A stretch of DNA of 63,959 nt, the filler included, from Globobulimina sp. (lineage: Eukaryota): the NCBI GenBank assembly GCA_003354225.1. It is 26 parts of 26 records of this genome, joined end to end, with 100 filler letters (N's around TTAATTAATTAA, not from the genome) between each part and the next. Parts side by side here need not be neighbours in the genome. Positions count along the whole stretch, not along the records: positions 46,825 to 49,187 come from PIVH01007140.1; 25 more parts are not named here. The stretch is one strand, 5' to 3'. The notes under the pieces are model-generated. The model had not been told where the DNA came from. It searched no databases and saw only the letters and a program-made list of their open reading frames with translations. Shown piece by piece: positions 29,045 to 61,598 of this stretch. How positions within the stretch are numbered: position 1 is the stretch's first letter; every line of letters starts with the position of its first letter. The position numbers and the translations under genes were made by a program.

Positions 29045-29960
29045 CAGTAAAACGTAATATATATTAAGCTCGAGCTGAGTTGGATTTGGTGGTTATTGAA
29101 CTTTCAATCTAGCAAATTTATAAAGTTCTGTACTGAATAAATACCTTTATATCCAATATATTAATATAGTGGTTCTTTGGTGTTAACTTCTTTTGTTGCT
29201 CATTTGGTTCATCTGTATATTAAGAAAGGTGATTTTGGAAGTATTGTTGGCCAGATTACTGTGATTGGTATGATTTATGGTTTTTTTTTAAGGGTTTAGC
29301 CCCGGTCTTGTTTGTGAAAAACAATATTTATTGTTTACGCTTGCTGCTGGTTTTCAATACATAAATCTTCTTCTATTTTAATCCTAATAATTATATAATG
29401 ATAATAGACCATTAATGCTCCAATAATCTATGTTCCTTTTGTTATTGTGAAAGAGCTCCATGCTCCATGTGAACCTNNNNNNNNNNNNNNNNNNNNNNNN
29501 NNNNNNNNNNNNNNNNNNNNTTAATTAATTAANNNNNNNNNNNNNNNNNNNNNNNNNNNNNNNNNNNNNNNNNNNNACAAAATTCTTCTAAAGGGGTATT
29601 ATTGTTAACTGTACGTACATTTGTATGTGTATATATTTAGAATGTGTACAACAACTGTAATTGTCAAAAAAAAAGACATAATTGAAAGTAATTAGTCAGT
29701 TAAGTAACAGTACCATTGAGAGCCCCAGAATCCTTGAATGAATCGTATTGTGTGCAGGTTTTCAATTGACTTAGTCGGCGCATTTGAATATGTCAATTTC
29801 TTTCTCTCTGATTCATCAAAGCAATAAAACTCATCTCTAGCAAATGACACAGTGCTTGACACAAAAATAAATATTATTGCCGCTTTAAAGTGTGCAGACA
29901 TTATTGCGTTGTTTTCAGCAAACTCTTTTCTTAGTTTTCTACCTTAGCTTGTATATTACA

Positions 29961-31574
29961 ATGCCACCAATGCAAGTGACAACAGACCCCGCCCAAAAAC
30001 ACAACAACAATGACACTGCAACAGCATCTATCATAATAGATGGCAACAAAGTAAGATCCTGGCGTCTATTTTGGAGGATATTTGCAGTGTTTTTAGTGAT
30101 AATATTTATAATAATTATTATTATCATAGTAGAGGCAACAAAAGATAAAGCAAACTCGACCTCAACCAATTCACCAACAACATCACCTCTATCTTTTGAG
30201 ACCCCGGCACCAACGTTGCATTATTTAGATACCATTTCGTTGCCATCCGCTGATTTTAATATTGCATATTACGCATCACCCACAACGTCCATCATTAAGC
30301 AACCCCGTGCTTTACGCACAGCCTATCACAACGGAGCTACTTTGGTTTATGTTGGCAGTAAGCAATTTGCTATGGATGCCGCATATGTTATGGTCGACTA
30401 TGAATCAGATGGTGTAAACGATGCAGAATTCATTATATTTGAATCCAGCTCTGTAAATAGCACATATTCCCCTGCTTCATTAGCCTTATCCTTTGATGGC
30501 AACAATGATTTATATATTTCATTGACTGATATGCTGATCAAATGCGATGGCAATGTTCATGCAAAAGTACTCAACTTGACCACTGCTGATCGGCTAACGG
30601 GTTGTAATAAGATATTAGATATACCATTGACTGCAGAAGACGTGTCCAAGAGTTGGAATGTAAGGCGATATATTGGCATATCAACAGCCAATCAGTTATG
30701 TATGGCCAATGGTGTGACGCATGACAGTGTTTCTGACAGTGTTGACATGTCGTTCCCGCACGGCACTATCACTTGTTTCAACGATTTAAGTTCGGCAGCA
30801 ATGTTGAATACAAATATGAGTGATATGAATGATGCCAATATCATTATAAAAGCAGATGGTATTCGTAATTCAGTTGGATTTGATTGGCATCCAGTTAGCA
30901 ATGCATTGTATTTTACGGATAATGGGCGAGATGATGTACACGAACATTATCCTGATGATGAGTTGAATTTTGTTGGTGGTAAAAACCATTTTGGATTCCC
31001 ACATTGCCATTCCTTAGGTTCAGGTTTGTAACGTTCAATGTGTTGGTATTGATATTGATATTTATGTTTGTGTACAGGAGATGTAGCACAGAGAGATATT
31101 AACTGTGCAGAATGGTATCTGGACCCCAATATATCTGATCCTTCGGGTGTTAACTGTTCGCTTTATGTGAATGCATTTCAGCCGTTAGGAGCTCACGTTG
31201 TGCCGTTAGGAATGAGGTTTTATACTGGAAATATGTTCCCGACGGATTATGTGAATGCAATATTTATTGCTGAAAGAGGGAGTGGAAAGAATGACTCATT
31301 TGGGTATAGAATAGCAGTGGTTAAGTTATCTGGGGATGGGACAGAAGTAGTTAATCATGAGATATTTGCAGATGGATGGTATGATTATGACAATAATGTG
31401 GTGAATGGAAGACTTGTGGAGGTTGCTATATTAAACGACGGTTCTTTGTTAATAGGTAATGATGATGGAGATGGAGCAATTTATCGGGTGACATACACAG
31501 GAGATAAAAGCGACCAATTTTTGAATCCAATTGCATCCAATCCAACTTGTGATTTTTCATATGTAAATTTGTAA
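29961..31574 (+). CDS. Membrane-anchored PQQ-dependent sugar/sorbosone dehydrogenase-like beta-propeller (intron 31024-31077)
   Basis: GIRNSVGFDWHP..LYFTDNGRD, PDDELN, HFGFPHC, LGAHVVPLGMRFYTGNMFP, DGSLLI..D...AIYRVTY; one N-terminal TM followed by a Ser/Thr/Pro stalk. Confidence 0.8.
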
Positions 31575-36968: not shown

Positions 36969-39332
36969 GCATATTCGCCGGCACCAGACAAGCTTTGTTG
37001 CAATTACGCTGGGAATTATTTCAGTACGTTAACTTTGTTTATTTTACTTTTTGTTCCACAGCATTACGCCTTATAATAATCACAGGTTAATATTCAAAAA
37101 ATCGCAGCCGTTGGATCAATGTACATACTGTCAATGTGTTCGAATGTTATTCGTTCGTTCCGAGCACTGTCATATTATACAAAAACCCATCGGGCGGCGC
37201 ATCAAAACTTATCAACAAAGTAACGTCAAATTAGTAAATATTAATGATACCACACAGACCATGGACGTGGATAAAGATATTACCATTCCAGTCAGCGACG
37301 TGCAGAAACATTTCAAAGCGTTGTGGCAAATCGAATCATTTATTATGACCCGCTTATTTGCTGTACATCCTTTCCATACTAACAACCATGGCAAGCACGC
37401 ACAATATGACATTTGTACCGATTATCAACAATTTTTTGTCAAAGTTATTGCAGTTCCACCCAACAGATACCGTCCACCCATGTTTGCAGTAAACAGAATG
37501 AACGAATGTGCGCAAAACCGGCAATACAGAAATATTTTAAAAGAAAACATCGCAATGAAGGAAATATTTAAACAGATCACCAAATTAACCACACATCCAT
37601 TGTTGAAGAAATATACCGAGGAAGAGAAGGGGTTTGCGGATAAAGACGAATTAATTGAAGCGGAAGGACTGTTCGCAAAGTACCAGGAAAGCAGGAAACA
37701 ATTTATTCAAAAATGGGAATTGCTACAACAACATTACAACCACTTGACAGACAGCACAAAAAACGGACAGTTGTATCGAAATAGCAGGCCTGGAACGAAT
37801 GTGATAGAGCCAGGTACGACATTTATTTTTAATGTTAAAGTCAAAAACAAAAACTAAAAATGAAACAAAAAAGGTATCCGACAGTTAATAGAGAAAAAAC
37901 AAGGGCTGTTTCGTATGTTTATGATGGGGAAACGCGTGAATTTCGCCGCTCGAAGTGTGGTGAATCCTGAATTATGGATCAAAACCAATGAGATTGGTAT
38001 ACCATTGTACGCAGCCAAAATGTTAACGTATCCGGATCGCGTGCAATCACACAATTACTATGAACTGCGACAGGCCATTCTCAATGGTCCGGATATCCAT
38101 CCTGGGGCAAATTCGGTGACTAACGGGTGTGGCCAGAAAATATCATTAACTTTTATGAATTTGCAGCAGCGGACAGCAATCGCGCGCACTTTGTTGAGTA
38201 ACATGTCAATGAATGGTCGCTCCCACTCGCAGTCGCAGGAGAATCCCGCAGCGAACAGGCCGCAAATTGTCGAGCGACATCTACGGAATAACGACATTGT
38301 GTTAGTTAACAGACAGCCAACGTTGCATAAAGTGGGTATTATGGCGCATAGAGTCAGGGTGCAACACAAAGGTAAAGTGATTCGAATGCATTATGCAAAC
38401 TGCAACAGTTACAACGCGGATTTCGATGGGGATGAAATCAATGTGCATTTCCCGCAGAGTGAGATTGCGCGGAGTGAGGCTTATAACATTGCTGCGACGG
38501 ACAAACAGTATGTTTCTGTGAAAGATGGCAGTCCGTTGAGGGGGTTAATGCAAGACCACGTTGTGTCGAGTGTGTTGTTGACGAAAAAGGACACTTTTCT
38601 GAGCAAGGATGAATACACACAACTGCTGTTTTCGTGTATGCAAACATGGAATCCTGCGATGAAGATACGGATGGAAGCTCCGACAGTGCTGAAACCGAAG
38701 CAGTTATGGACTGGCAAACAAGTTATAAATACGTTACTGAATGCGATCTCTGGTAACTTGGATGGGATTAATATGGAAAAGAAGACGCGGACACCGGCCA
38801 ATGCGTGGAATGGAATTGAATCCTGCTACAAAGAGGAAGGACTATTAATTGTGCGAGATAATTATATCTGCGGTGGCATTTTGGATAAATCGCAGATCTC
38901 TGACGGGCAAAGCTTTGGTTTAATACATGCCATTCATGAGTTGTATGGGCCGCACGCAGCGAGTACGTTTTTGACCAGTTTGGGGCAGTTATTGTCCACT
39001 TATTTGCAATCGCATGGCTTCAGTGCGCGAATGGAAGATTTGATATTGACTGAAAAGACAGAATTGCAGAGACAAAGCATCATAAAAAATTCGTTTAAGA
39101 AATCTGTACTGCGCTGTGCTGAATCGGTTGGGTATAATGTTGATAAAAATAACAAGCAGCGCAGCTATGTGGGGGTCATAAATGCGATGAAAAGGTTTGT
39201 GTTGTCAGACGATAAAAACGAGCATAGATTAGATGGTGAAATGAGGAGCACATTGGCTGAGGTTACCAATGCAGTCATTGACAATTGTTATCCGTTTGGT
39301 TCATTTATCCCATTTCCAATCAACAAATTCCA
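36969..39332 (+). CDS. RPA1: RNA polymerase I largest subunit, internal fragment
   Basis: VPPNRYRP, G(intron)IRQLIEKKQGLFRMFMMGKRVNFAARSV, NRQPTLHK, HYANCNSYNADFDGDE, PLRGLMQDH, WTGKQV. Confidence 0.92.
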
Positions 39333-39432: not shown

Positions 39433-40004
39433 AGGCATCGTGTCTCGAAATGTTGATTACATGTATTACATTCGCCGCATTTCCATTTGTCAGAGTTGTG
39501 GCTGTCGCTATCACCGTCGTAGTCCAATGGTAAGGAGGTGGATGGCGGGGTTTGTGGGGTTTGTGTGTTATGTTGGTTATTATTTGAGAGTTTATTATAA
39601 TTATATTTCATTTCTCCGCACGCGTCACACATTAATTTGTAATGTGGATTTAAAAGAGTACAGATGTTACACCGCCATTCATTTGTATTTTGTGTCTGCT
39701 TTTGTATGTGTGATTTGTCAGAATCGTCTTTTGTCTCTTCGATGGGTGCTAAATTTATGCATTTTGGAGCCGCGCAAATATCACAATAGGATTTGTAATA
39801 CGTATTCATGTATGTGCAGGTGTTACATTTCCAATCGACTTTGTCGTCTAATAAACTTTGTTGTTTTGCTGGTTTGTGGTATTTGTTTGTAGATGGAGTG
39901 GGTGTTGGAGCGGTTGGTGTCAATCGTAAGGGATTGTGTGGTGCTGTGCTGAGGGTGCTCATGTCCATGTTTGGTGGGAATTTCGCCTTGTTTTCGGTTG
40001 CCAT
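39433..40004 (-). CDS. RanBP2-type zinc finger repeat protein, 3'-partial
   Basis: WKCNTCTYMN..CDIC, WRCNICTLLN..CDAC, WKCGECNTCN..C. Confidence 0.8.
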
Positions 40005-40076
40005 GATACAATGTTTTTCGGTCAAGTGCAGTCAGTGACTCAAGGAAAATCCCGATCGATAACTTACTTCAAGATA

Positions 40077-41681
40077 ATGGGAGCAGATTTTTCTGAAACA
40101 ATGTGTGTCGGAATCACTAAAGTATGCAACCCATCAACAGCAACAGAGAATGGTGGCACTTCATATAGAGTAGAAGCCAGACGTCATACTATTAAAAAAG
40201 GACAGGAACGTAAACAGGAGACAGAGAATTTGAAAATATTATCAAAGCTGCTGAAAGAATCCAAAGATAAGCAAACATTATATAACCAATGTATAAGTCC
40301 GTCCTCATATCGATTATTATATCGTGGATCCAAAAAGCGATACAAAATATCATCTCTTCATTCCGCCTGCGACAATGTCTCAAATATATTTATTATCATC
40401 GAATCAACAGACAACAATACATTCGGTGCGTATTCATCGAAAGGATTGGATTCAGAGAGACTAAATGCATACATTGAAGATGGCCAAGCATTCATTTTTT
40501 CCATCACAAAAGCTGAAATATTTAATGTAGACTTAGAATATAAAAGATATGCGTTATTTAACTCTGATCATCGTTTGTTACAAATTGGTGGAAGCCCTGG
40601 CTGTGACGCTGACATTTGTATCATTGAAAATTGCCATAAATCAAAAGGTTCGTTTGTTTTAAAAAATATATATTCCCATCCAAACGACGGTTATTTAAAT
40701 GGTGGCAGCAAAGATTTCCAAGTCAGAGAATTATTAATTTATACTGTTTCCAATGATTATGTTCCATTAAAACATGCCGATAATTCGTATGAAACTGCTG
40801 TTGGTGATGAGGAAGATGATAATATAAGGTATGAACAGTAAATAAGTCTCAGTTGTTTGCACATTTTATGACTGATTTATGTGATTAGCTATGCAGAATC
40901 AGCGGATTATGCGGATGAGATTGACGAAGAACATATTACAGACAATCGCAAATTTCATGTTTATGTGTATGATCGGCACAAATTGTCAGAGTTTACAGTG
41001 CCTGAATTGAGTGGTGACATAGATACAAAGTCAGTGAATTACGCAGGATGTGTAATTGGCAATGATTGGGATGAAACATCAAAATCAAATGTTGATAATT
41101 TATCATTGGATATTACCAAAACATTAAAAACATTAAAGATCAACAGAGGCGATTGCAAAGTTATTATCTTTGTTGAAAATGAAGAAAATGGAAATAAATT
41201 ACAACTGATTGATACTGTTAATTATGGAGAGGAAGAAAAGGAAGAAATGGTTGAATATAAACCAATGATACCATCAATTGCAGAGCATGCCGTGTATGCA
41301 GTGGACGATGTTAAAATAGATGAAAAAATTGAGTTAATTAGGAAGAAAAGTGCGGCAAAGATGGATAGGAAGAAACAAATGGCAGCGTTGAGAATGAAAT
41401 ATAGTTCGCGTAGAGTTGTATTGCATGGCAAGAATAGGAAGAAAACACCGCAATGCAGTGAATGTAATACGTATTATCATATACAAAGTGATCCAATCAA
41501 TGCATATGGTGGCATTGGAATAGTTTGTGATATTTGTGAGAAAAATAGAAAGAATAACCCGGAAATGGTATTGGAAGAACATTATTATAAATGCGAAAAT
41601 TGTGAAGCAATTGATATCTGTTCTGATTGTTATAAAAAAGAGAAAAGGAAACTGAATGAAAAACACAAAAATAGGCTGTAA
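40077..41681 (+). CDS. TLDc-domain protein with C-terminal ZZ-like zinc finger (intron 40829-40888)
   Basis: LLYRGS...LHSACDN...IIIESTDNNTFGAY...AFIFS...YLNGG..F.VRELLIY; C-terminal CSEC/CDIC/CENC..DICSDC; MGADFS possible myristoylation start. Confidence 0.8.
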
Positions 41682-44550: not shown

Positions 44551-46139
44551 TCATTTACCAATATATTGATATTGTGATGGACTATGTTTATACGGACACC
44601 TATCTTGCAAATTGTTATCATATCCATTCAATAAAATATCTAATAAATGATAATTTCTGCCTTTGCCCTTGCCCAACATTGTCAAATAAGCTTCTGTCGG
44701 TCTCTCATTTAGCACCAAAGGAACTGTACTTTCATCTAAACCGCCATGCGATAATCTCCATTCATACTGGCCGAGATCACTCAAATTATTATCACAAAAT
44801 ATCGCATCCACATCAGCCAACAACAATACATTACCGATTCTGTCCTCTGGTAATTCCAAACTTGAGCACGATTCTTGATGCCCAATCGAACAATATATTC
44901 CCTTCAGATTTCTCATATAACCCAATGTGTAGAAAATTAATTTATTTTTCAATTCTATATCCACATTTTCATTCGCATGCTTTTGCACAATATGAATGTG
45001 ACCAAATCCATACAGTATATCTTTTGACTTACTTTGTAAAATTATTTCGTATTCAAACAATGAAAATATATCCATATTCCACTCATTTCCATATATTTGC
45101 CAACATTCATTCAGTTTTTGTTCAATATTAACGATGAACAAATCTCCTTTGGCTCCGAGTTTATAATTTATGCCATGCGATGATGTCATACCATATCTGC
45201 AGCCCCGTTCATCAAACACATTCAAATACGCATCAATCTGCGACATCCATTGCATCATTGTTGGCGATCGATGGTCATAATAATATTGAATGGTCGCTGG
45301 TGATATAGCTATATAACTTAACTGTGGTGTTTCAATATTCTCGTTTTCCAACACTTTTTTCATAATTTCTAATAAAAACAATCCACATTCTCCGTTAAAA
45401 TCCGATATGACACCGTTTTTATGCTCAAAATATACGGATAACTGCTTCAATCGATTGAATATTTCATTATCTTTTAAAATACAGTGAATCAATGCATTAT
45501 CAGTATCCATGATATCGCTTTGTGTGTTATTCACACATTTATGCAATAATTCCAATGATAAACTGCTTGAATTCGGATGCAAATCATAAGTTAATTGTTC
45601 TCTATACTCTTCATTCAACGCCATAAATAACACAGTGGTACCATGGTGAGATAATTCAGAGCAAATTGAGTCTGCAAATAAACTGTCACTGTCTGTAATA
45701 TCGCCACCAATACAATAATCGCCAACAATTCCGTGATTATCCGGTGTTGAAGCAGTCATAATGCTGACTTGATTGACACGTGAACACGTCGGGAACACTG
45801 TGCTTATTGCACATTGGTAGCCTTTCGATAATTTATTGTGTGATATTGGCGTTGTGATATCACGGACATGCGGCATATGATTAGTTAATGCTTGATCCAA
45901 ATGCTAATATTAAAAAATACAGTATTAACATATCAAATAGCTAGTAATTAATCCACACACTTAACTTTTACATCACATCCATCAATGGTTATGGCAATGA
46001 CAGGCTTGGAAGGATCTGGCTGAGCGTACAGACTTTCATTGATTGTAACCTGTGATATGCTGGATTGCGATGCAAACCTGTTCGCTAAAGCAAAAGTGTA
46101 CTTAGACAAATTGCCATTTAATCTTTGCAAAGGTGACAT
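44551..46139 (-). CDS. Phosphonoacetate hydrolase (PhnA)-like alkaline phosphatase superfamily protein, degenerate active site (intron 45904-45965)
   Basis: INESLY..P...VIAITIDGCD..LDQA..MP, N.VSIMT...P..HGIVG.Y, LELPEDRIG, SHGGLDE..VPL..N and RNY..LD..LN are collinear with PhnA. Confidence 0.8.
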
Positions 46140-46223: not shown

Positions 46224-46724
46224 ATGCAAAATATTAAATGTGTGGTGGTAGGCGACGGTGCTGTCGGTAAAACGTGCTTATTAATTTCGTATACAACCAA
46301 CGCGTTTCCTGGTGAGTACATACCGACTGTCTTCGATAATTACTCTGCGAATGTGATGGTTGATGGGAAACCAATTCAATTGGGACTGTGGGATACCGCC
46401 GGACAGGAAGATTATGACCGCTTAAGACCGTTATCATACCCACAAACGGATGTGTTTTTGGTTTGTTTTTCCATCATTTCAAAATCGTCATTTGAGAATG
46501 TAAAACAAAAATGGATTCCGGAGTATGTCTCTATTATTTTTTATCAATTTGCATGCGTATTATTAGCTATTAATTACTGTCATATCAGAATCAAGCATCA
46601 TGTGCCGGATGCGCCTTTTTTATTAGTTGGCACAAAGTCAGATTTAAGAGATGATCAAGAAGTTACAAAGAAATTTGGTGCGTGCATCACTTTGGAATCG
46701 GGAATAGGTTTGCATTGTATTTTA
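46224..46724 (+). CDS. RAC: Rac-family Rho GTPase, 3'-partial (intron 46523-46588)
   Basis: [40 protein letters not shown]...[24 protein letters not shown]. Confidence 0.97.
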
Positions 46725-46824
46725 NNNNNNNNNNNNNNNNNNNNNNNNNNNNNNNNNNNNNNNNNNNNTTAATTAATTAANNNNNNNNNNNNNNNNNNNN
46801 NNNNNNNNNNNNNNNNNNNNNNNN

Positions 46825-48821
46825 CACCAAATAGATCACCAAATAAACCACCAAATAAACCACCAAATAAATCACCCAATAAATCCCCAAAAGTAACCGC
46901 TAAGAAACCAAAAGCAAATAAGCCATCAAAACCAATTGCTAACAAAACATCAAAAGTTGCAGTTATAGCTAACAAACCAAATAAATCACAGAAAAAATCA
47001 CCAAATATTTCATCAAAACCACCAACAACCAAAACACAAACAAAAACTGCCTCAACTAAGCCAGTCCCAAAGCGCCCAAAATCGATAAAGCCCCAAAATG
47101 TGCAACCGCCCAAACAGCAAACGGACGTAAAAAAAGTAAAAATAGCTCACAATCCACATACATCCCAGTCACAGAATGCAACGGATGATCAAAAAACTGT
47201 ATCCATAGAAGCAGCGGCCCCAATCTCTATAATTTCAGATTCAGTGACTGAATGTGAGAAATTTTTAGAATCTGAACGCGTTTATGTTAAAAATGGATTA
47301 CGTATCGGCTACGAAGTGTTTTTCCATCGCTTAGAGATCCACAACAAACTCAACGATGCCATCTTATCCGACGACGAAATCCAAGCTCTCTTTGGAAACT
47401 ACGCCATGCTCTACAATGTGAACCGAAAATTACTCGAAGATTTGCTACACATTCGACTCAACCAAGGCTCAGATGCATTGCGCGATAATTTGGGCGAGAT
47501 TATGGTGAAATTCATACCTTATTTTCGAATGTATTCCGATTACATTGTAAAAAAAAGGACTGCCATCACCAAGTTAGACGGCTTAAAAAAAAGCAATAAC
47601 AAATTCGCGCAGTTCGTCAAAATCAACGAAATGTGCGTCAAACGCAAATTAAAATCCTTTTTAGAAGAGCCGGCGGTGCGAATCATGCAATATTTACAAT
47701 ATTTGGGCAATATTTACGCCGGTCACAAGACTGACATTATGCTGCAAAGTATCATGGATATTAAAAAAGTGACGGATGAGATTGCGATTAAATGCAGAGA
47801 CAATAAGTCGCGGCAGTTAGTGGGCCAGATTCAAAGTGATTTGTTCGGGAATAAAATCCAATTATTAGCTGCGCACAGACTGTGCATCGCGTATTGTACT
47901 ATGAATTTATTATTGAATCAAGAGAAGAAGATAAAAACGTGTCCGTTTATATTATGCAACGATATTTTTTTGATTGGCAGCGCTGTGACAAAATTCAAAT
48001 CTGGGAACTTAATTTCTGTGCATCCCTTGATTGGACTGAGAGTGGTGAATATTGATTGGGTGGAATACAAATTTAGTTTGTTGCCGGCGAATATTGTGGC
48101 GTTTGCAGAGAGTACCGAGAAAATGGAGAAATGGATCAAAATGATCCAGGAAGCGGTGGATGAACAGGAACATAGTTTGAAGCAATGCAATGTGGTGGAT
48201 TTGGAGAAGCGATTACGAAAACAAAAAACGTCGAAGGAGGGACAGTCCGATACTATAAATATTACCAATCCCGCACGGATTCGGCAGATTGAAATATGGA
48301 GGAATAAAAAATTTAAAGTGGCTGGGTCTGGTAACTCTGGCTCTGGTTCGAAGTCTGTGGCACAGTCAAAAGTAAAAGTTACTGTAAAACCGAGGGTTGA
48401 GGCCAGCAAAAACAAAACGAAACCGGTAGTGGAGAAGAAAGAAAATGTGAATTCTGTGAGTGTGGCAAAGAGAAAAGTGGAGAAAGTGGAGGAAGAGAAA
48501 GAAGAGGAATATGTAGAGAGTGATGGTGATGATGATGGGGTTGGTGGTGAGGTGGTGGAGGAAAATAATAAAGAGATAAATAGGCGTAATGATGGAGGTG
48601 GACACAGTAAAGCAATGTCATCGAGAATGAGTTTAATGTCTGGGATAACAGGGTTTAATAATAAGTCTTTGAAACGCGTGGATAGCGAGACTTTGCGGTT
48701 AGGAAAAAGTGAGCCGGAGGCAGTGGATAATTTATTACAATCGACATTAAAGAATTATAGGAAATTTGTAATGGATGATGATGACGATGAGAGCGATAGT
48801 GATAATGAATGGAGTGACTAA
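46825..48821 (+). CDS. DH-PH RhoGEF with C-terminal WH2-central-acidic (WCA/VCA) module, 5'-partial
   Basis: DH: FLESERVYV..L, IQALFGN, PYFRMYSDY, LKSFLEEPAVRIMQY. PH: FILCNDIFL...EKMEKWIKMI. Tail: RMSLMSGITGFNNKSLKRV / NLLQSTLKNYRKFV / DDDDDESDSDNEWSD*. N-terminal PNK(S/P) repeats. Confidence 0.85.
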
Positions 48822-49287
48822 TCATACAATGTATAAAAAATAGTATAACTGTTTTTAGAGTGAAGTAAGTTTAGAATGTTAGCTTTATTTTTATCTGTCA
48901 TGTTAACAAACTGATACCAAGAATCAATGACAGATACGAGGATTTATCCATTGTCGAAACCATTTCACAGCTTTTGTTTGTGTTACAATTGAATTGCCAG
49001 ATGGTGTACTCGTAAAATTCATAATTATATGGTCAGAGTATTAAGAACTTGTTAGGCAATGTTAGCTCATATGATGTTGTAATCTTGCAATCTTTTAGTA
49101 AGTAACTAAGTAACCTAAACGATATATTCCAAAAGATACACCCCCTGGTCGATAAGTACTTATTGGTCAGATTAATTTAACATCATANNNNNNNNNNNNN
49201 NNNNNNNNNNNNNNNNNNNNNNNNNNNNNNNTTAATTAATTAANNNNNNNNNNNNNNNNNNNNNNNNNNNNNNNNNNNNNNNNNNNN

Positions 49288-51801: not shown

Positions 51802-54112
51802 GGAGCCGACTTCTGGAATGGATCCGGAAAATCGACGCAAAGTATGGGATATTATTGAGCAAGAAAAGAAAAACAGACTCATCATCTTAACGACCCACTA
51901 CATGTATTACCAATATCTGCTCTTTTGTTTACATTCTATACATACATAAACACCAAAGGGACGAAGCTGATACGTTAGGCGATAGAATTGCGATTATGTC
52001 GAGCGGGCAAATTAAATGTTGCGGCTCTGCCTTATATCTCAAGCGATTGTATGGTGTGGGATATTCCTTTACTGTCTCATTGAAATCTGGCACCAATTTG
52101 GAAGAAGAAAAGGATGCATCATTGAAAGGCGAAATTGATGACATATTATCTGACATCAATGGAATGGAAACTGTCTCAGTCGCTGCCTCTGAAATATTAT
52201 ACAAATTGCCGTTTGAAGGCAGTGGCGAATTTGCCAATGTGTTCCAGAAACTGGATCAGAACAAACAGAACTTGAAAATAGAAACCTTTGGCGTCTCAGT
52301 GACTACCTTGGAAGAGGTCTTTCTAAAAATTGGCAATCATGACACAAAAACGAACGACATGAACGACAAGATTGCGAGTTCCGACCAAGAGGCAGAACAA
52401 GAAGAGAAATACGCATATGATACAGTGGGAGATTTGAAATTTGAACAAGCCGAGTTTCAGTTGGAAAACAGCAATGCTTTATGGATATTGATGATCCATA
52501 TTTATGCCATATTATATAAACGGTTTTGGTGGTCCATCCGCGACATCAAAGGCATAATTTGCCAGATTGTTTTACCGGTGGTTCTGATCGGATTATTATT
52601 TGGTTTGACCGAAGAAATCCAAATCTCGCAACAAGAGCTACATTTAGCACCCTCGCAGTTTGTGGATGAATATACGGATTCGGTCATTGTTCCCATTGGG
52701 AAATTAGCTGAAGATTATACTATCAATGTCAGCAATTTGTATTACACGGATCCAGATTATAATTGGCCTCGTTTTTACCACGAGAATATGCAATCGACCT
52801 TTGGCCATAACCAGACATTTTCGATCGGTACAAATGCCAGTACGGACATTTCCTGTTTAGGTTATAATGCGAATTCTGTTCAATTTTATAGCGATTCGCC
52901 ACCAAATTGCACCGCTAGTTTGCAAGAAGAAATATATCACCATTCGTCACGTCGCAGTACGCCATATTTTGGGTTTTACTTTTCACCGCATATAAATACG
53001 CATGAATGGGAGAGTAACAATGAAGTGTTGTTTGGAGTGAATGCCTCCGCCTATCATTCATTGCCAATATCCGCCAATGTGTGGAGTAATTGGGTACTGC
53101 GCAATGTCTATGACTCCGAGCATGCGGCACAAATTAATGTGTATTCCTATCCATTTCCAAAGACCAAACAAGAAGAACAGGTCCAAACTGCACAGAGCGG
53201 TATGCAGACCGCCATTAATTTATTAATTGCATTCACATTAATCCCCGCGTCGAGCATTTATTTCGTAGTCAACGAGAAGATAATCGGCACAAAACATCAA
53301 CAATTTGTGTCTGGCATTTCCATCCCGTCATATTGGATTGGCACATATGTCTCTGACATATTATTGGGAGTCCCTGCATCCACATTGGTGGTGGTCTTGG
53401 TATACATATTCGATGTGGACGAGTTCAAAAATGCGGCCGCTATGCCACTCTTTCTATCACTTTTATTATTTGTGTCGTCATCCATTGCGGCTGGATATTT
53501 GTTACATTTTTGGTTCAAATCGCCGGGCAAAGCACAGTTTATCACCATTTTATTTAACATCTTATTAGGTGTAATATTCACGATCGTCACCTCAGTCTTA
53601 GACAGCATCGGCGATGAATCCACAGACCAGACCTCGGAGGATATAAAAACTGTGGTGCGCATATTGCCGATTTTTCTCTTATCTGAAAATATATTGCGAA
53701 TAATCAGCAAACCGTTTGAGAATCCAACCAAATCCTATTGGCATTACAAGGTAACGCAGAGAAATATTAATTATATGATTTTAGAATCAGTTGGGTATTT
53801 TTTGCTGGTTATACTCATCGAATACGCCCGCTCCTTTCCGTCATTATTGGCAAAGTTAGGCTTCGTAGTGGACCAACCTCGAAAATATATACGCTTAGAC
53901 GAGGACGTGTTGGCTGAACAAGAACGCATCAAACAAGCAGTGGACCCCGTGACTGGCAACTTTATCTCCGGGATCTTGGACGACACGGTGGTTTTGTGTG
54001 GATTACGCAAAGTGTATGGAACAGTTTAATAATACCTGGCCAATATCTAGCCATTTTATGTAAAATATATACTTACATTTTGTCGGACAAGGAAAAACTG
54101 TACATTAAGTTC
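51802..54112 (+). CDS. ABCA subfamily transporter, internal fragment
   Basis: [20 protein letters not shown](intron)[39 protein letters not shown]...YW, DEDV..E..R, LRKVY. Confidence 0.95.
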
Positions 54113-59839: not shown

Positions 59840-61099
59840 CTAGTGCTGTGTTTGTGTTTGTGTTGTAAGATAATCCATATCCAGCACCTCATCGATAGTT
59901 GGTCTTTCATACGAATTATATCGCAATAATTGTGTTAAAAACACATACAAACTCCATCCAATTATACTGTTTTGTTGCAATTTCAACAAATGTTTCTGTA
60001 GCATTCCATGCCCGGTTGTTGTAGCAAACACTTTCAACATTTCAATTTCAGACATTTTGCAATGTCCAAATATTCGTTCATAATGATGGCCGCCTAAAAC
60101 CACATTTAATATCACCAATCCATATGAATAAATATCGCATTTCTTTGATAATATACTGTAATGAATACCGGTACTTTCACATAACTTAATCTCTGGCGCG
60201 GTCCATGACTTACTGCCAACAAAGCCTTTCTGTTTAACATAGCCTTTCTTCGGATCAATATATCGCGCTAAGCCATAATCGATAATGGTCCATTTCATAT
60301 CCCTCGCATTCCACATTACATTCTCTTTCTTTATGTCTAAATGAGCATATTGTAAATCATGGATTCCCTTAATATTATTTGCTAAATCTTTTGCAATTTG
60401 CTGCACGAAGGCATTGTCATAACCATTATGGTCACGTTTACTGCTCAAGCTATGGGACAGCTTCTTCATTATAATAATGGCTTTGGTGTAATTGCGTTTA
60501 TCATAATATAAATCTGTATAATGCAATAATTTGCCTTGTTTTACCAATTTGAATTCAGTCATTACGGCGTAGACAGCCTCTTGTCGGTCTTGAAAGGATT
60601 CATAAATATCTTCGTTCATAAAATACATAACTTTGGCAACATATTGAATGGCAATGGAGTTGCAATGGGAACCGATGCGAGTTACTTCAAAAACAGATCC
60701 CTGACCACCCCATCCGATCTGTTTTCCTTTGTTCCATTCTTTTTTAAATTCATTGATATGTTTAACTGCATTTATTATTTGTGTTGTTTTGGGCTGGATG
60801 TTATAAATGGCATTCTTTACAAATGCTGCATCCGTGGATGCTCCTGCTCCGCCGCAAAGAAATGTATTTGATTGTTGAATCATCAAAGGTGCGGGATGAG
60901 GATTGTTTTCTTTTTGGCCTTCGTTTGTTTGTGGTGTCGATGAATATCTGTGTCGAAGAAACAATTTAGTTTTGTCGTAGAGTTTCTGAGATGCCAGCAT
61001 GTCTCCCAAAATTTGGAAGATGAACTGAAGAACGGCAACTGTGAATAAAATTAATATAAATGGCACACTGACTTTTAACGTGATGACTGGAGATGTCAA
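59840..61099 (-). CDS. Ser/Thr protein kinase with an upstream hydrophobic segment (true start uncertain)
   Basis: IGWGGQGSV, VAK, HLDIKKEN, DYG, APE, DIYSYG, ERPT; non-RD catalytic loop. Confidence 0.88.
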   Translation of the reverse strand: MTSPVITLKVSVPFILILFTVAVLQFIFQILGDMLASQKLYDKTKLFLRHRYSSTPQTNEGQKENNPHPAPLMIQQSNTFLCGGAGASTDAAFVKNAIYNIQPKTTQIINAVKHINEFKKEWNKGKQIGWGGQGSVFEVTRIGSHCNSIAIQYVAKVMYFMNEDIYESFQDRQEAVYAVMTEFKLVKQGKLLHYTDLYYDKRNYTKAIIIMKKLSHSLSSKRDHNGYDNAFVQQIAKDLANNIKGIHDLQYAHLDIKKENVMWNARDMKWTIIDYGLARYIDPKKGYVKQKGFVGSKSWTAPEIKLCESTGIHYSILSKKCDIYSYGLVILNVVLGGHHYERIFGHCKMSEIEMLKVFATTTGHGMLQKHLLKLQQNSIIGWSLYVFLTQLLRYNSYERPTIDEVLDMDYLTTQTQTQH

Positions 61100-61598
61100 A
61101 CTTATTTGTAACTCATAATAAGTCTCTTGTGACTATGAAAGTCCAAGTACGGGGTGGGTGGTGGTTATCTATCTGAATATAGTTCAAATATTTGCAGAAT
61201 ACTTTCTACCTTAACTCCAAATCATGTCACTTTTTTCTAGAATTTTCCAGCGTGCTGTGCGATTATCTGTACCATCGTCATTTGTAATGTACAGTGCGTT
61301 TGCAGTAAATACATCCGAAAGCAGTATGTTAAATGTTTTGACATCTAAGAGAATATTTGTTATTCGCACTGTTTAATGATGATAAGAAAGAACAAGAAGA
61401 TGAGGAGGAATGTGAGACGCCAATTTGTCATGATGCAGACGAAGCAATTAAGGAATATTCTCAATTTATGAATAAAAATAAAAATAGAAACAGAAATTNN
61501 NNNNNNNNNNNNNNNNNNNNNNNNNNNNNNNNNNNNNNNNNNTTAATTAATTAANNNNNNNNNNNNNNNNNNNNNNNNNNNNNNNNNNNNNNNNNNNN

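Follow-up and report, generated by a model that had tools for sequence, protein, structure and literature searches.

Can a single polypeptide both engage a Rho-family GTPase and promote the nucleation of branched actin? The question is raised by one contig of the foraminifer Globobulimina sp. (PIVH01007140.1 of assembly GCA_003354225.1), at positions 46825-49187 of the window, i.e. the whole 63,959-base stretch of DNA analyzed here. A first-pass annotation of its sequence had read the frame as a Rho guanine nucleotide exchange factor (RhoGEF), with the Dbl-homology (DH) and pleckstrin-homology (PH) domains in tandem, fused to a complete WH2-central-acidic (WCA) tail of the type that activates the Arp2/3 complex. 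The DH-PH tandem and the W, C and A parts indeed follow each other in canonical order in one chain, as borne out by Pfam, AlphaFold, Foldseek and the conservation across Rhizaria. The best reading of the frame is the 3' 664 codons of a foraminiferal gene, whose family has a layout of DH-PH, a disordered and mostly proline-rich linker, and a C-terminal WCA tail. Comparison of homologous sequences shows this DH-PH-WCA architecture to be real and conserved, with selection acting on it most strongly in the tail. We propose, at a probability of roughly 0.6, that the protein is a Rhizaria-specific WCA nucleation-promoting factor (NPF) with a RhoGEF regulatory module, in other words a Rho-coupled Arp2/3 activator.

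One open frame from the DH domain to the acidic tail

The frame 46827-48821 on the plus strand is open without interruption for 664 codons and ends with TAA. Since position 46825 is the first base of the contig and no ATG precedes the DH domain in this frame, the gene is truncated at its 5' end; the span proposed by the first-pass annotation therefore holds except for its start, 46825, which is the contig edge. The three sequence strings that it had picked out (RMSLMSGITGFNNKSLKRV, NLLQSTLKNYRKFV and DDDDDESDSDNEWSD) are present in that order in the one open frame, and the Trp that it had placed three residues from the end is Trp662. The features are as follows, with residues (aa) numbered from the first codon of the frame and pLDDT standing for the predicted local distance difference test.

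46825-49187, no strand: single assembly contig of 2363 bp, with an artificial linker on either side; the neighboring sequence is unlinked
46827-48821, plus: partial coding sequence of 664 codons and TAA; no intron seen, 5' end cut at the contig end
46827-47216, plus: basic low-complexity N-terminal region, aa 1-130, with 28 K, 22 P, a net charge of +26 and PNK-type repeats; pLDDT <50
47241-47846, plus: DH (RhoGEF) domain, aa 139-340, from Pfam PF00621, PDB alignments, AlphaFold helices and Foldseek
47883-48170, plus: PH domain, aa 353-448, seven strands and a C-terminal helix, from the FARP1 alignment, AlphaFold (pLDDT ~90) and Foldseek
48171-48320, plus: conserved post-PH block, aa 449-498 (…CNVVDLEKRLRKQKTSKEG…IEIW), from the alignment; folded, pLDDT 70-95
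48321-48617, plus: disordered charged linker, aa 499-597, V/K/E-rich, from AlphaFold, composition and the alignment
48624-48680, plus: WH2-like motif RMSLMSGITGFNNKSLKRV, aa 600-618, a helix-forming MSLMSGITGF and then LKRV, from the family profile
48714-48773, plus: central (C) amphipathic helix, aa 630-649, from AlphaFold (pLDDT 76-81) and conservation
48729-48770, plus: C-helix string NLLQSTLKNYRKFV, aa 635-648, from the translation
48774-48818, plus: acidic (A) region DDDDDESDSDNEWSD, aa 650-664, with Trp662 (48810-48812) third from the end
48819-48950, plus: stop codon and short 3' flank; a weak hint comes from the cover by public runs, which ends at ~48880-48960 for X5, X6 and X7 and continues for X1

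Contigs from other public runs cover the frame without any joint. One contig of 1728 nt from run X7, ~95% alike, spans 47076-48821 and thus holds the DH domain, the PH domain and the tail together, and a 2046-nt contig from run X6 extends 669 nt farther upstream than 46862. Between these runs and the stretch there are two length variants, of 24 and 6 bases, both multiples of three; the 6-base variant lies inside the linker and the 24-base variant begins at its N-terminal edge. Of 104 differences between runs and stretch, 40 were listed and 32 of these tabulated; 14 of the 32 fall at aa 139 or beyond, among which 11 are synonymous, each taken singly. The cover by X6 and X7 speaks for contiguity of the gene, not for its expression, and the RNA nature of the two runs is a guess.

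The basic region aa 1-130 is probably part of a longer basic extension, like that of the long-form foraminiferal relatives P0009 and P0006. The long basic N-terminal extensions of these two share a block …DLWxDY…F…LTYKxAxxIFDxF…YIxRDIxxAKxRLS…, and the contig begins downstream of its expected site. Relatives with a complete N-terminus start ~20 residues ahead of the DH domain.

The DH domain was recognized by Pfam RhoGEF (PF00621) at aa 146-297, with an E-value of 7.1e-21 and 75.6 bits over a cut-off of 27.6. Sequence searches against the PDB matched the DH domains of FGD6, ECT2L, ARHGEF3, an Entamoeba Rho/Rac GEF, NET1 and intersectin, and aligned the DH-PH of FARP1 over aa 187-450. An AlphaFold2 model from a 21-sequence family alignment has pLDDT values of 85-96 across aa 141-490 (means of 10-residue blocks) and consists of an all-helical domain at 139-340, strands at 353-426 with a helix at 430-448, and a further folded block to 498; an earlier run with 8 sequences had a mean pLDDT of 45, too poor for use. 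Structural search using Foldseek returned at least 152 PDB matches at E ≤ 0.001, the best of which are all DH-PH tandems. The top matches are collybistin, p115-RhoGEF, Asef, P-Rex1 and LARG (1x86_E, TM-score 0.74, root-mean-square deviation 3.4), and the autoinhibited structures of Vav1 (3ky9) and Asef (2pz1) are also among the Foldseek matches as a whole. Pfam PH was called in six of the eight relatives scanned and was not called in the target protein at E up to 10. In conserved region 1 (CR1), Glu150 aligns with the Glu of FGD6 (SEK), ECT2L (SER) and the Entamoeba GEF (TEK), and is kept in all 14 aligned family members that cover the position, whereas CR3 corresponds to EEPAVRIMQYLQYL at aa 280-293. 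From these sequence features, exchange activity of the DH-PH on a Rho-family GTPase is plausible but not assured.

For the W part of the tail, an 18-sequence tail profile searched against 177,635 PDB sequences matched the actin-bound WH2 repeats of Cordon-bleu (4jhd_C) with an E-value of 1.3e-5, a gelsolin-Cobl-thymosin chimera at 0.0015 and, weakly, leiomodin-2 at 1.9; a 7-sequence tail profile reached no significance in the PDB, its best match being Cordon-bleu at 0.13. Among the relatives, Pfam WH2 exceeds its gathering score of 23.1 bits in P0028 (33.2), P0033 (36.7), P0037 (36.8) and P0039 (46.7), and is listed at E ≤ 0.05 in seven of the ten longer ones scanned. Several members carry two WH2 copies with a fully canonical LLxxIxxGxxLKKV, followed by LxxxLxxYRxFV, an acidic run and a terminal Trp.

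The C part is a helix at aa 630-649 in the AlphaFold model, with a hydrophobic stripe and an invariant Arg; its pLDDT of 76-81 stands out in an otherwise disordered tail, the linker and the acidic end being below 50 in the 21-sequence run. Zimmet 2020 (PMC7274804) describes the C region as an amphipathic helix of four turns that binds Arp2 and Arp3 through its hydrophobic face, and places the conserved A-region Trp (EWE-type motif) in basic pockets of ArpC1 and Arp3. The A part of the target has 10 D/E among its last 22 residues, with W662 third from the end. Its putative C helix and acidic Trp agree with these published accounts in their described features rather than by alignment. The W-C-A order, its location at the very C-terminus and the poly-proline linker that most relatives have together form the pattern of class I NPFs. 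Atlas neighbors of the tail comprise a WH2-bearing cluster and a WHAMM-tail cluster (score 0.88), which we take as leads only. A hidden Markov model (HMM) of the tail matched the target alone among the 1012 open reading frames of at least 30 aa in the window, the 1011 others giving no match at E ≤ 10. All seven Arp2/3 subunits are present in Foraminifera, as stated in the preprint of Krabberod 2016 (10.1101/064030), and the tail would bind G-actin and activate this complex.

A tail conserved in Foraminifera and Cercozoa

A first homology search found seven relatives, including RFI_18153 of Reticulomyxa filosa, which is annotated merely as 'hypothetical protein / PH domain-containing protein'. 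Their linkers are too diverged to align, yet the tail still aligned, with the consensus SRxxMLAGIxGFxKxKxLKxV … NVxNLLQSTLKNYRQFVMDDDDSDDSDxDWDD. When 1.84 billion representative proteins were scored with a C-terminal profile that covers the post-PH block, the linker and the tail, 46 of them matched at E ≤ 1e-3, 29 at E ≤ 1e-10 and 9 at E ≤ 1e-30. In a word-indexed search, the tail alone gave P0005 only, and the whole-family profile added only P0024 and P0069. Seven of the ten longer members scanned have a Pfam RhoGEF domain (P0009, P0017, P0020, P0033, P0037, P0039 and P0048), and in the four relatives whose WH2 lies above the Pfam cut-off, it accompanies RhoGEF/PH. In most relatives a proline-rich linker takes the place of the V/K/E-rich linker at aa 499-597.

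Few members carry names. Those that do belong to Nonionella stella (P0009 and P0033), Mataza sp. D1 (P0039), the metagenome-assembled genome of Cercozoa sp. M6MM (P0028) and R. filosa; the family thus spans Foraminifera and Cercozoa, with the caveat that foraminiferal transcriptomes can include other eukaryotes.

In the 21-member alignment, the sole invariant residues outside the DH-PH core are Y644, R645 and V648 of the C helix, and R645 is also invariant in the alignment of 18 tails. I607, L615, K616, L641 and W662 are at least 90% conserved. Conservation of the acidic end and its Trp among homologs, a point on which the first-pass annotation had made its reading depend, was found as expected: among the 69 collected proteins, 44 reach the C helix, and 42 of these have a Trp within their last six residues. 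The two exceptions, P0002 and P0026, are sequences cut short inside the acidic run.

The post-PH block at aa 449-498 has the consensus …EHxLKxCNxVDLEKRLRKQKTSKEGxxETIxITxPxxIxxIExW, which no other stretch exceeds in conservation among the foraminiferal members and which can also be recognized in Cercozoa. It matched no Pfam family and had no usable Atlas match.

The tail also occurs without DH-PH. Behind Kelch repeats, P0032 and P0052 (from Bolivina argentea and Nonionella stella) have the same tail with its YRxFV core and terminal Trp, and in P0068 an SH3 domain and a CCDC53-like stretch precede a more diverged W-C-A tail (VRANV for YRxFV, with the terminal Trp kept). That such tails recur behind these other modules argues for a function of their own, not tied to the DH domain. 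This distribution indicates that the WCA tail is mobile as a module within Rhizaria, and points to a radiation of WCA-bearing proteins in this group that has not been described.

A predicted resting state and the competing readings

The complex of the tail (aa 590-664) with the DH-PH (aa 130-500) was predicted from single sequences, with no alignment. The interface score ipSAE was 0.77 (0.77, 0.78 and 0.77 in three runs), compared to 0.18 for the best control; of 78 solved complexes, 51 attain the docking mark, as do 2 of 108 mismatched pairs. The partner has a pLDDT of 58, and at least 67% of the contacts agree across runs. On the DH side the predicted interface comprises residues 224, 227, 240, 243-244 and 283-327, i.e. 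CR3 and the long helix that follows it, and on the tail side residues 617-626 and 633-650, centered on Y644, which packs against residues 316-320, right around Ala320. CR3 and the α6 helix make up much of the GTPase-binding surface in DH-GTPase complexes. A C helix docked on CR3/α6 would therefore block GTPase binding, and its own Arp2/3-binding face would be hidden by the DH domain. The model suggests that the C helix docks on this surface in an autoinhibited state. Both kinds of masking have precedents: the C helix of WASP is masked by the GTPase-binding domain (GBD), as described in PMC7274804, and DH domains are masked intramolecularly by the SH3 domain in Asef, acidic-region tyrosines in Vav and an N-terminal helical motif in Tim, in the account of PMC6767298.

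We propose the following mechanism for a Rho-coupled Arp2/3 activator. The polybasic N-terminus and the PH domain would target the protein to the membrane. The DH-PH, in which the fold and the CR1 Glu are observed, would engage a Rac/Rho-type GTPase, possibly with nucleotide exchange, which is uncertain. WH2 would recruit an actin monomer, whereas the C helix and the acidic Trp, both present in the sequence, would bind and activate Arp2/3 as in class I NPFs. In the resting state the C helix would lie on the CR3/α6 face of the DH domain, as predicted with controls, such that GTPase binding and WCA exposure would gate each other, akin to the GBD and the C helix in WASP. A single chain would thereby couple Rho-GTPase signaling to branched-actin nucleation.

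Several observations weigh against this proposal. In the tail, Pfam WH2 was not called in the target protein itself at E up to 10, so that of the three domains for which the first-pass annotation had suggested a profile check, RhoGEF was recovered and PH and WH2 were not; even among the eight closest relatives, WH2 appeared weakly in three, with a best E-value of 0.023. In the foraminiferal WH2, the helix and LKxV are two to three residues farther apart than in the usual motif, a spacing that presumably resembles that of β-thymosin. Neither of the PDB profile searches, with 7 and with 18 tails, returned a WASP- or WAVE-family chain, and homology is demonstrated for W only, C and A being assigned by their defining features. 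The target also lacks the proline-rich stretch of its relatives. In the DH domain, Ala320 (47784-47786), in the last long helix (α6), aligns with the Asn of the 'DIN' of NET1, the one reference alignment that covers this helix, and the 14 aligned relatives that extend over the position all have A, S or T there. As for the docking, the method is unproven on peptides or disordered chains, and its result may reflect autoinhibited DH structures already solved; the single-chain AlphaFold output gives no contacts, and the pLDDT of 76-81 of the C helix is compatible with docking. Two of these points complicate the feed-forward module suggested by the first-pass annotation, in which one chain could both load Rac/Rho and nucleate branched actin: with Ala320, exchange is not assured, and docking would make GTPase engagement and Arp2/3 activation coupled and mutually gated, not simply simultaneous.

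The docking would also suit a RhoGEF that is no NPF at all, with a C helix that mainly inhibits in the style of Vav and Tim, and with WH2 and the acidic Trp merely tethering the GEF to actin monomers or Arp2/3, as the acidic-Trp motifs of cortactin and myosin I do, without activating nucleation. The predicted contacts are centered on the invariant Tyr644. For Asef, Vav and Tim there is good documentation that DH domains can be inhibited intramolecularly, as set out in PMC6767298. However, the Kelch proteins P0032 and P0052 and the SH3 protein P0068 carry W-C-A tails without a DH domain to inhibit. In addition, a complete W-C-A order at the extreme C-terminus, with poly-proline ahead of it in the relatives, is the signature of an activating NPF. 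We consider a purely regulatory or targeting role of the tail unlikely.

The residue at position 320 leads to another alternative, in which the protein is an NPF whose DH-PH has no exchange activity and serves as a GTPase-binding autoinhibitory module; the GTPase would free the WCA, and the protein would be an effector rather than an activator of the GTPase. Besides Ala320 and the A, S or T of the 14 relatives, this fits with a Pfam RhoGEF match that ends in the target at profile position 152 of 180, ahead of α6, and with the prediction of the C helix on CR3/α6. Because the α6 Asn position is Ala, exchange activity is uncertain, and it is the least certain part of our proposal. Nevertheless, Glu150 of CR1 is kept in every member that covers it, and cercozoan and some foraminiferal members match the RhoGEF profile through position 179 of 180. 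The Gln of CR3 is not universal in solved DH domains either, since NET1 and ARHGEF3, which are presumably active GEFs, have Ser in the same alignments. We take the α6 Asn itself to be important for catalysis, as in the N810/E639 pair of Dbs; a literature search gave no citable statement to that effect. We regard a DH-PH without exchange activity as quite improbable.

Chance likeness or an artefact of assembly or gene model, such as a fortuitous Trp in an acidic end or two separate genes, might be suspected from a short contig, a truncated gene, an artificially concatenated stretch and the commonness of acidic low-complexity C-termini, but is very hard to reconcile with one frame inside one contig that independent runs cover contiguously, an architecture that recurs in transcriptome-derived proteins of several genera, and a tail that is the most strongly conserved part and is unmatched by its HMM in the 1011 other frames.

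Relation to known actin regulators and the other contigs

If it is an NPF with a RhoGEF regulatory module, the target resembles WASP and N-WASP in the C-terminal order of WH2, C and A (with poly-proline ahead in relatives), the amphipathic C helix with a conserved Arg, the acidic end with a Trp in the penultimate region, and a C helix masked, here by prediction, by the protein's own GTPase-binding module. It differs in lacking WH1, the basic-CRIB region and GBD, and in having DH-PH, a module of the GTPase activator type, in their regulatory place. With SCAR/WAVE it shares one WH2, ~16 residues from LKxV to the C helix, an R..V-acidic junction and, in the proposed reading, a functional link between Rac-type signaling and Arp2/3, but it lacks the SCAR homology domain and gives no sign of a five-subunit regulatory complex. 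SCAR is entered as 'n.f.' for B. natans, the sole rhizarian tabulated by Fritz-Laylin 2017 (PMC5461030). WHAMM, JMY and WASH likewise join a conserved WCA to a lineage-specific N-terminal module, yet their N-terminal parts are unrelated and none has a RhoGEF. The rhizarian Kelch proteins P0032 and P0052 have the same tail type (WH2 … LxxxLxxYRxFV-acidic-W-end) and differ in their N-terminal Kelch module, and P0068 has a W-C-A tail, more diverged, with SH3 as its N-terminal module.

The nearest functional analog is the non-covalent pair of intersectin-1L and N-WASP, in which a DH-PH exchange factor is coupled physically and functionally to a WCA-bearing NPF. According to the summary in PMC2892021, intersectin-1L is subject to autoinhibition and to regulation by N-WASP. 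There, two proteins meet through SH3/poly-proline contacts, whereas the target would unite both functions in one polypeptide. Vav1, Tim and Asef share with the predicted resting state a short intramolecular element over the catalytic surface of the DH domain, with a key Tyr in Vav and Tim in the description given by PMC6767298. The element of the target differs in being the C region of a far C-terminal WCA, and relief of inhibition would thus also expose the Arp2/3-activating module.

No N-terminal domain of WASP, SCAR, WASH, WHAMM or JMY was matched by Pfam in the target or in the 8 + 10 + 10 relatives scanned; the CCDC53-like match noted above is in P0068, an SH3 protein and not a DH-PH member. 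For lack of these domains, the target falls outside the WASP, SCAR/WAVE, WASH and WHAMM/JMY families. On sequence-level features, it has those of both a class I NPF and a Dbl GEF, except for the Asn of the DH domain. The DH-PH-WCA family would be a new NPF family or, equally, a new Dbl subfamily.

The first-pass annotation was aware of no described NPF family of this kind, and we likewise found no account of a DH-PH-WCA protein in the literature. No paper was found that brings RhoGEF, WCA, Arp2/3 and WH2 together, although the fusion may be listed without comment in supplements or architecture databases. Among the matches listed, the literature found with rhizarian terms has no mention of RhoGEF or WH2, and that on RhoGEF and WH2 'domain architecture' has nothing on DH-PH-WCA by title or abstract. 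The words 'RhoGEF' and 'GEF' are absent from the main text of the Kollmar 2012 NPF survey, and 'WH2' and 'WASP' from that of the Fort and Blangy 2017 Dbl survey, which includes R. filosa (supplements not covered in either case). In PMC2837644, RhoGEF and WH2 appear only where domains that occur together with FYVE/PX are enumerated.

To our knowledge, the well-studied systems all link Rho GTPases to Arp2/3 activators via separate proteins, namely the GEF, the GTPase and then WASP or the WAVE complex. A natural covalent fusion of DH-PH and WCA that is conserved between Foraminifera and Cercozoa would mean that the same parts can be wired differently and, if true, would add one more to the few families of class I NPFs. 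It would provide a compact and directly testable model of mutual gating between GTPase engagement and nucleation, as well as an entry point to actin control in the reticulopodia of Rhizaria, a major eukaryotic group with little-explored cytoskeletal regulators. More tentatively, the family might be a new rhizarian class of Arp2/3 activators in which the C helix and a Rho GTPase compete for the DH surface. Such a protein might work as a switch-like positive-feedback unit, with the GTPase exposing the WCA and with local branched actin and membrane recruitment sustaining the GEF, and, in a lineage whose sole tabulated species has no SCAR/WAVE entry, could conceivably be the main link from Rac-type signaling to branched actin in reticulopodia and filopodia.

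The window itself is not one contiguous locus. It consists of 26 blocks of ~2363 bases each, ordered by size, between which TTAATTAATTAA occurs between runs of N in 25 copies at a spacing of 2465 to 2462 bases, against a chance expectation of 0.09. These linkers, N45-TTAATTAATTAA-N45 at 2410, 4875 … 61543, are artificial and of the six-frame-stop type. Because the contigs are unordered and artificially joined, gene order across the linkers carries no information, and genes that reach a block end are cut off.

At the 3' end of the DH-PH-WCA contig, a 40-base stretch at 49118-49157 has a very high summed depth in all four runs (552 in X1) and is where many short contigs stop or diverge; the assembly was probably broken here by a dispersed repeat. 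The six-frame translation of the 63,959-base window yielded no actin motif. The preceding contig holds a Rac1-like GTPase gene at 46224-46726 on the plus strand (Pfam Ras, E-value 2.5e-36), which matches human Rac1 with an E-value of 4.7e-61 across the first 100 residues, has a short GT…AG intron after ~46523 and is truncated by the contig end. As it lies on a separate contig, its adjacency to the DH-PH-WCA gene is without meaning; coming from the same assembly, its product is a candidate substrate or partner of the DH-PH-WCA protein. Further contigs carry fragments of ordinary eukaryotic content, namely RNA polymerase Rpb1 (domains 2-3, 37864-39320), an ABC-2/ABCA-type transporter (51891-54026), a protein kinase (59843-61132), a TLDc protein (39930-40838), a glucose/sorbosone dehydrogenase-like protein (29889-31028) and a type I phosphodiesterase-like protein (44554-45903).

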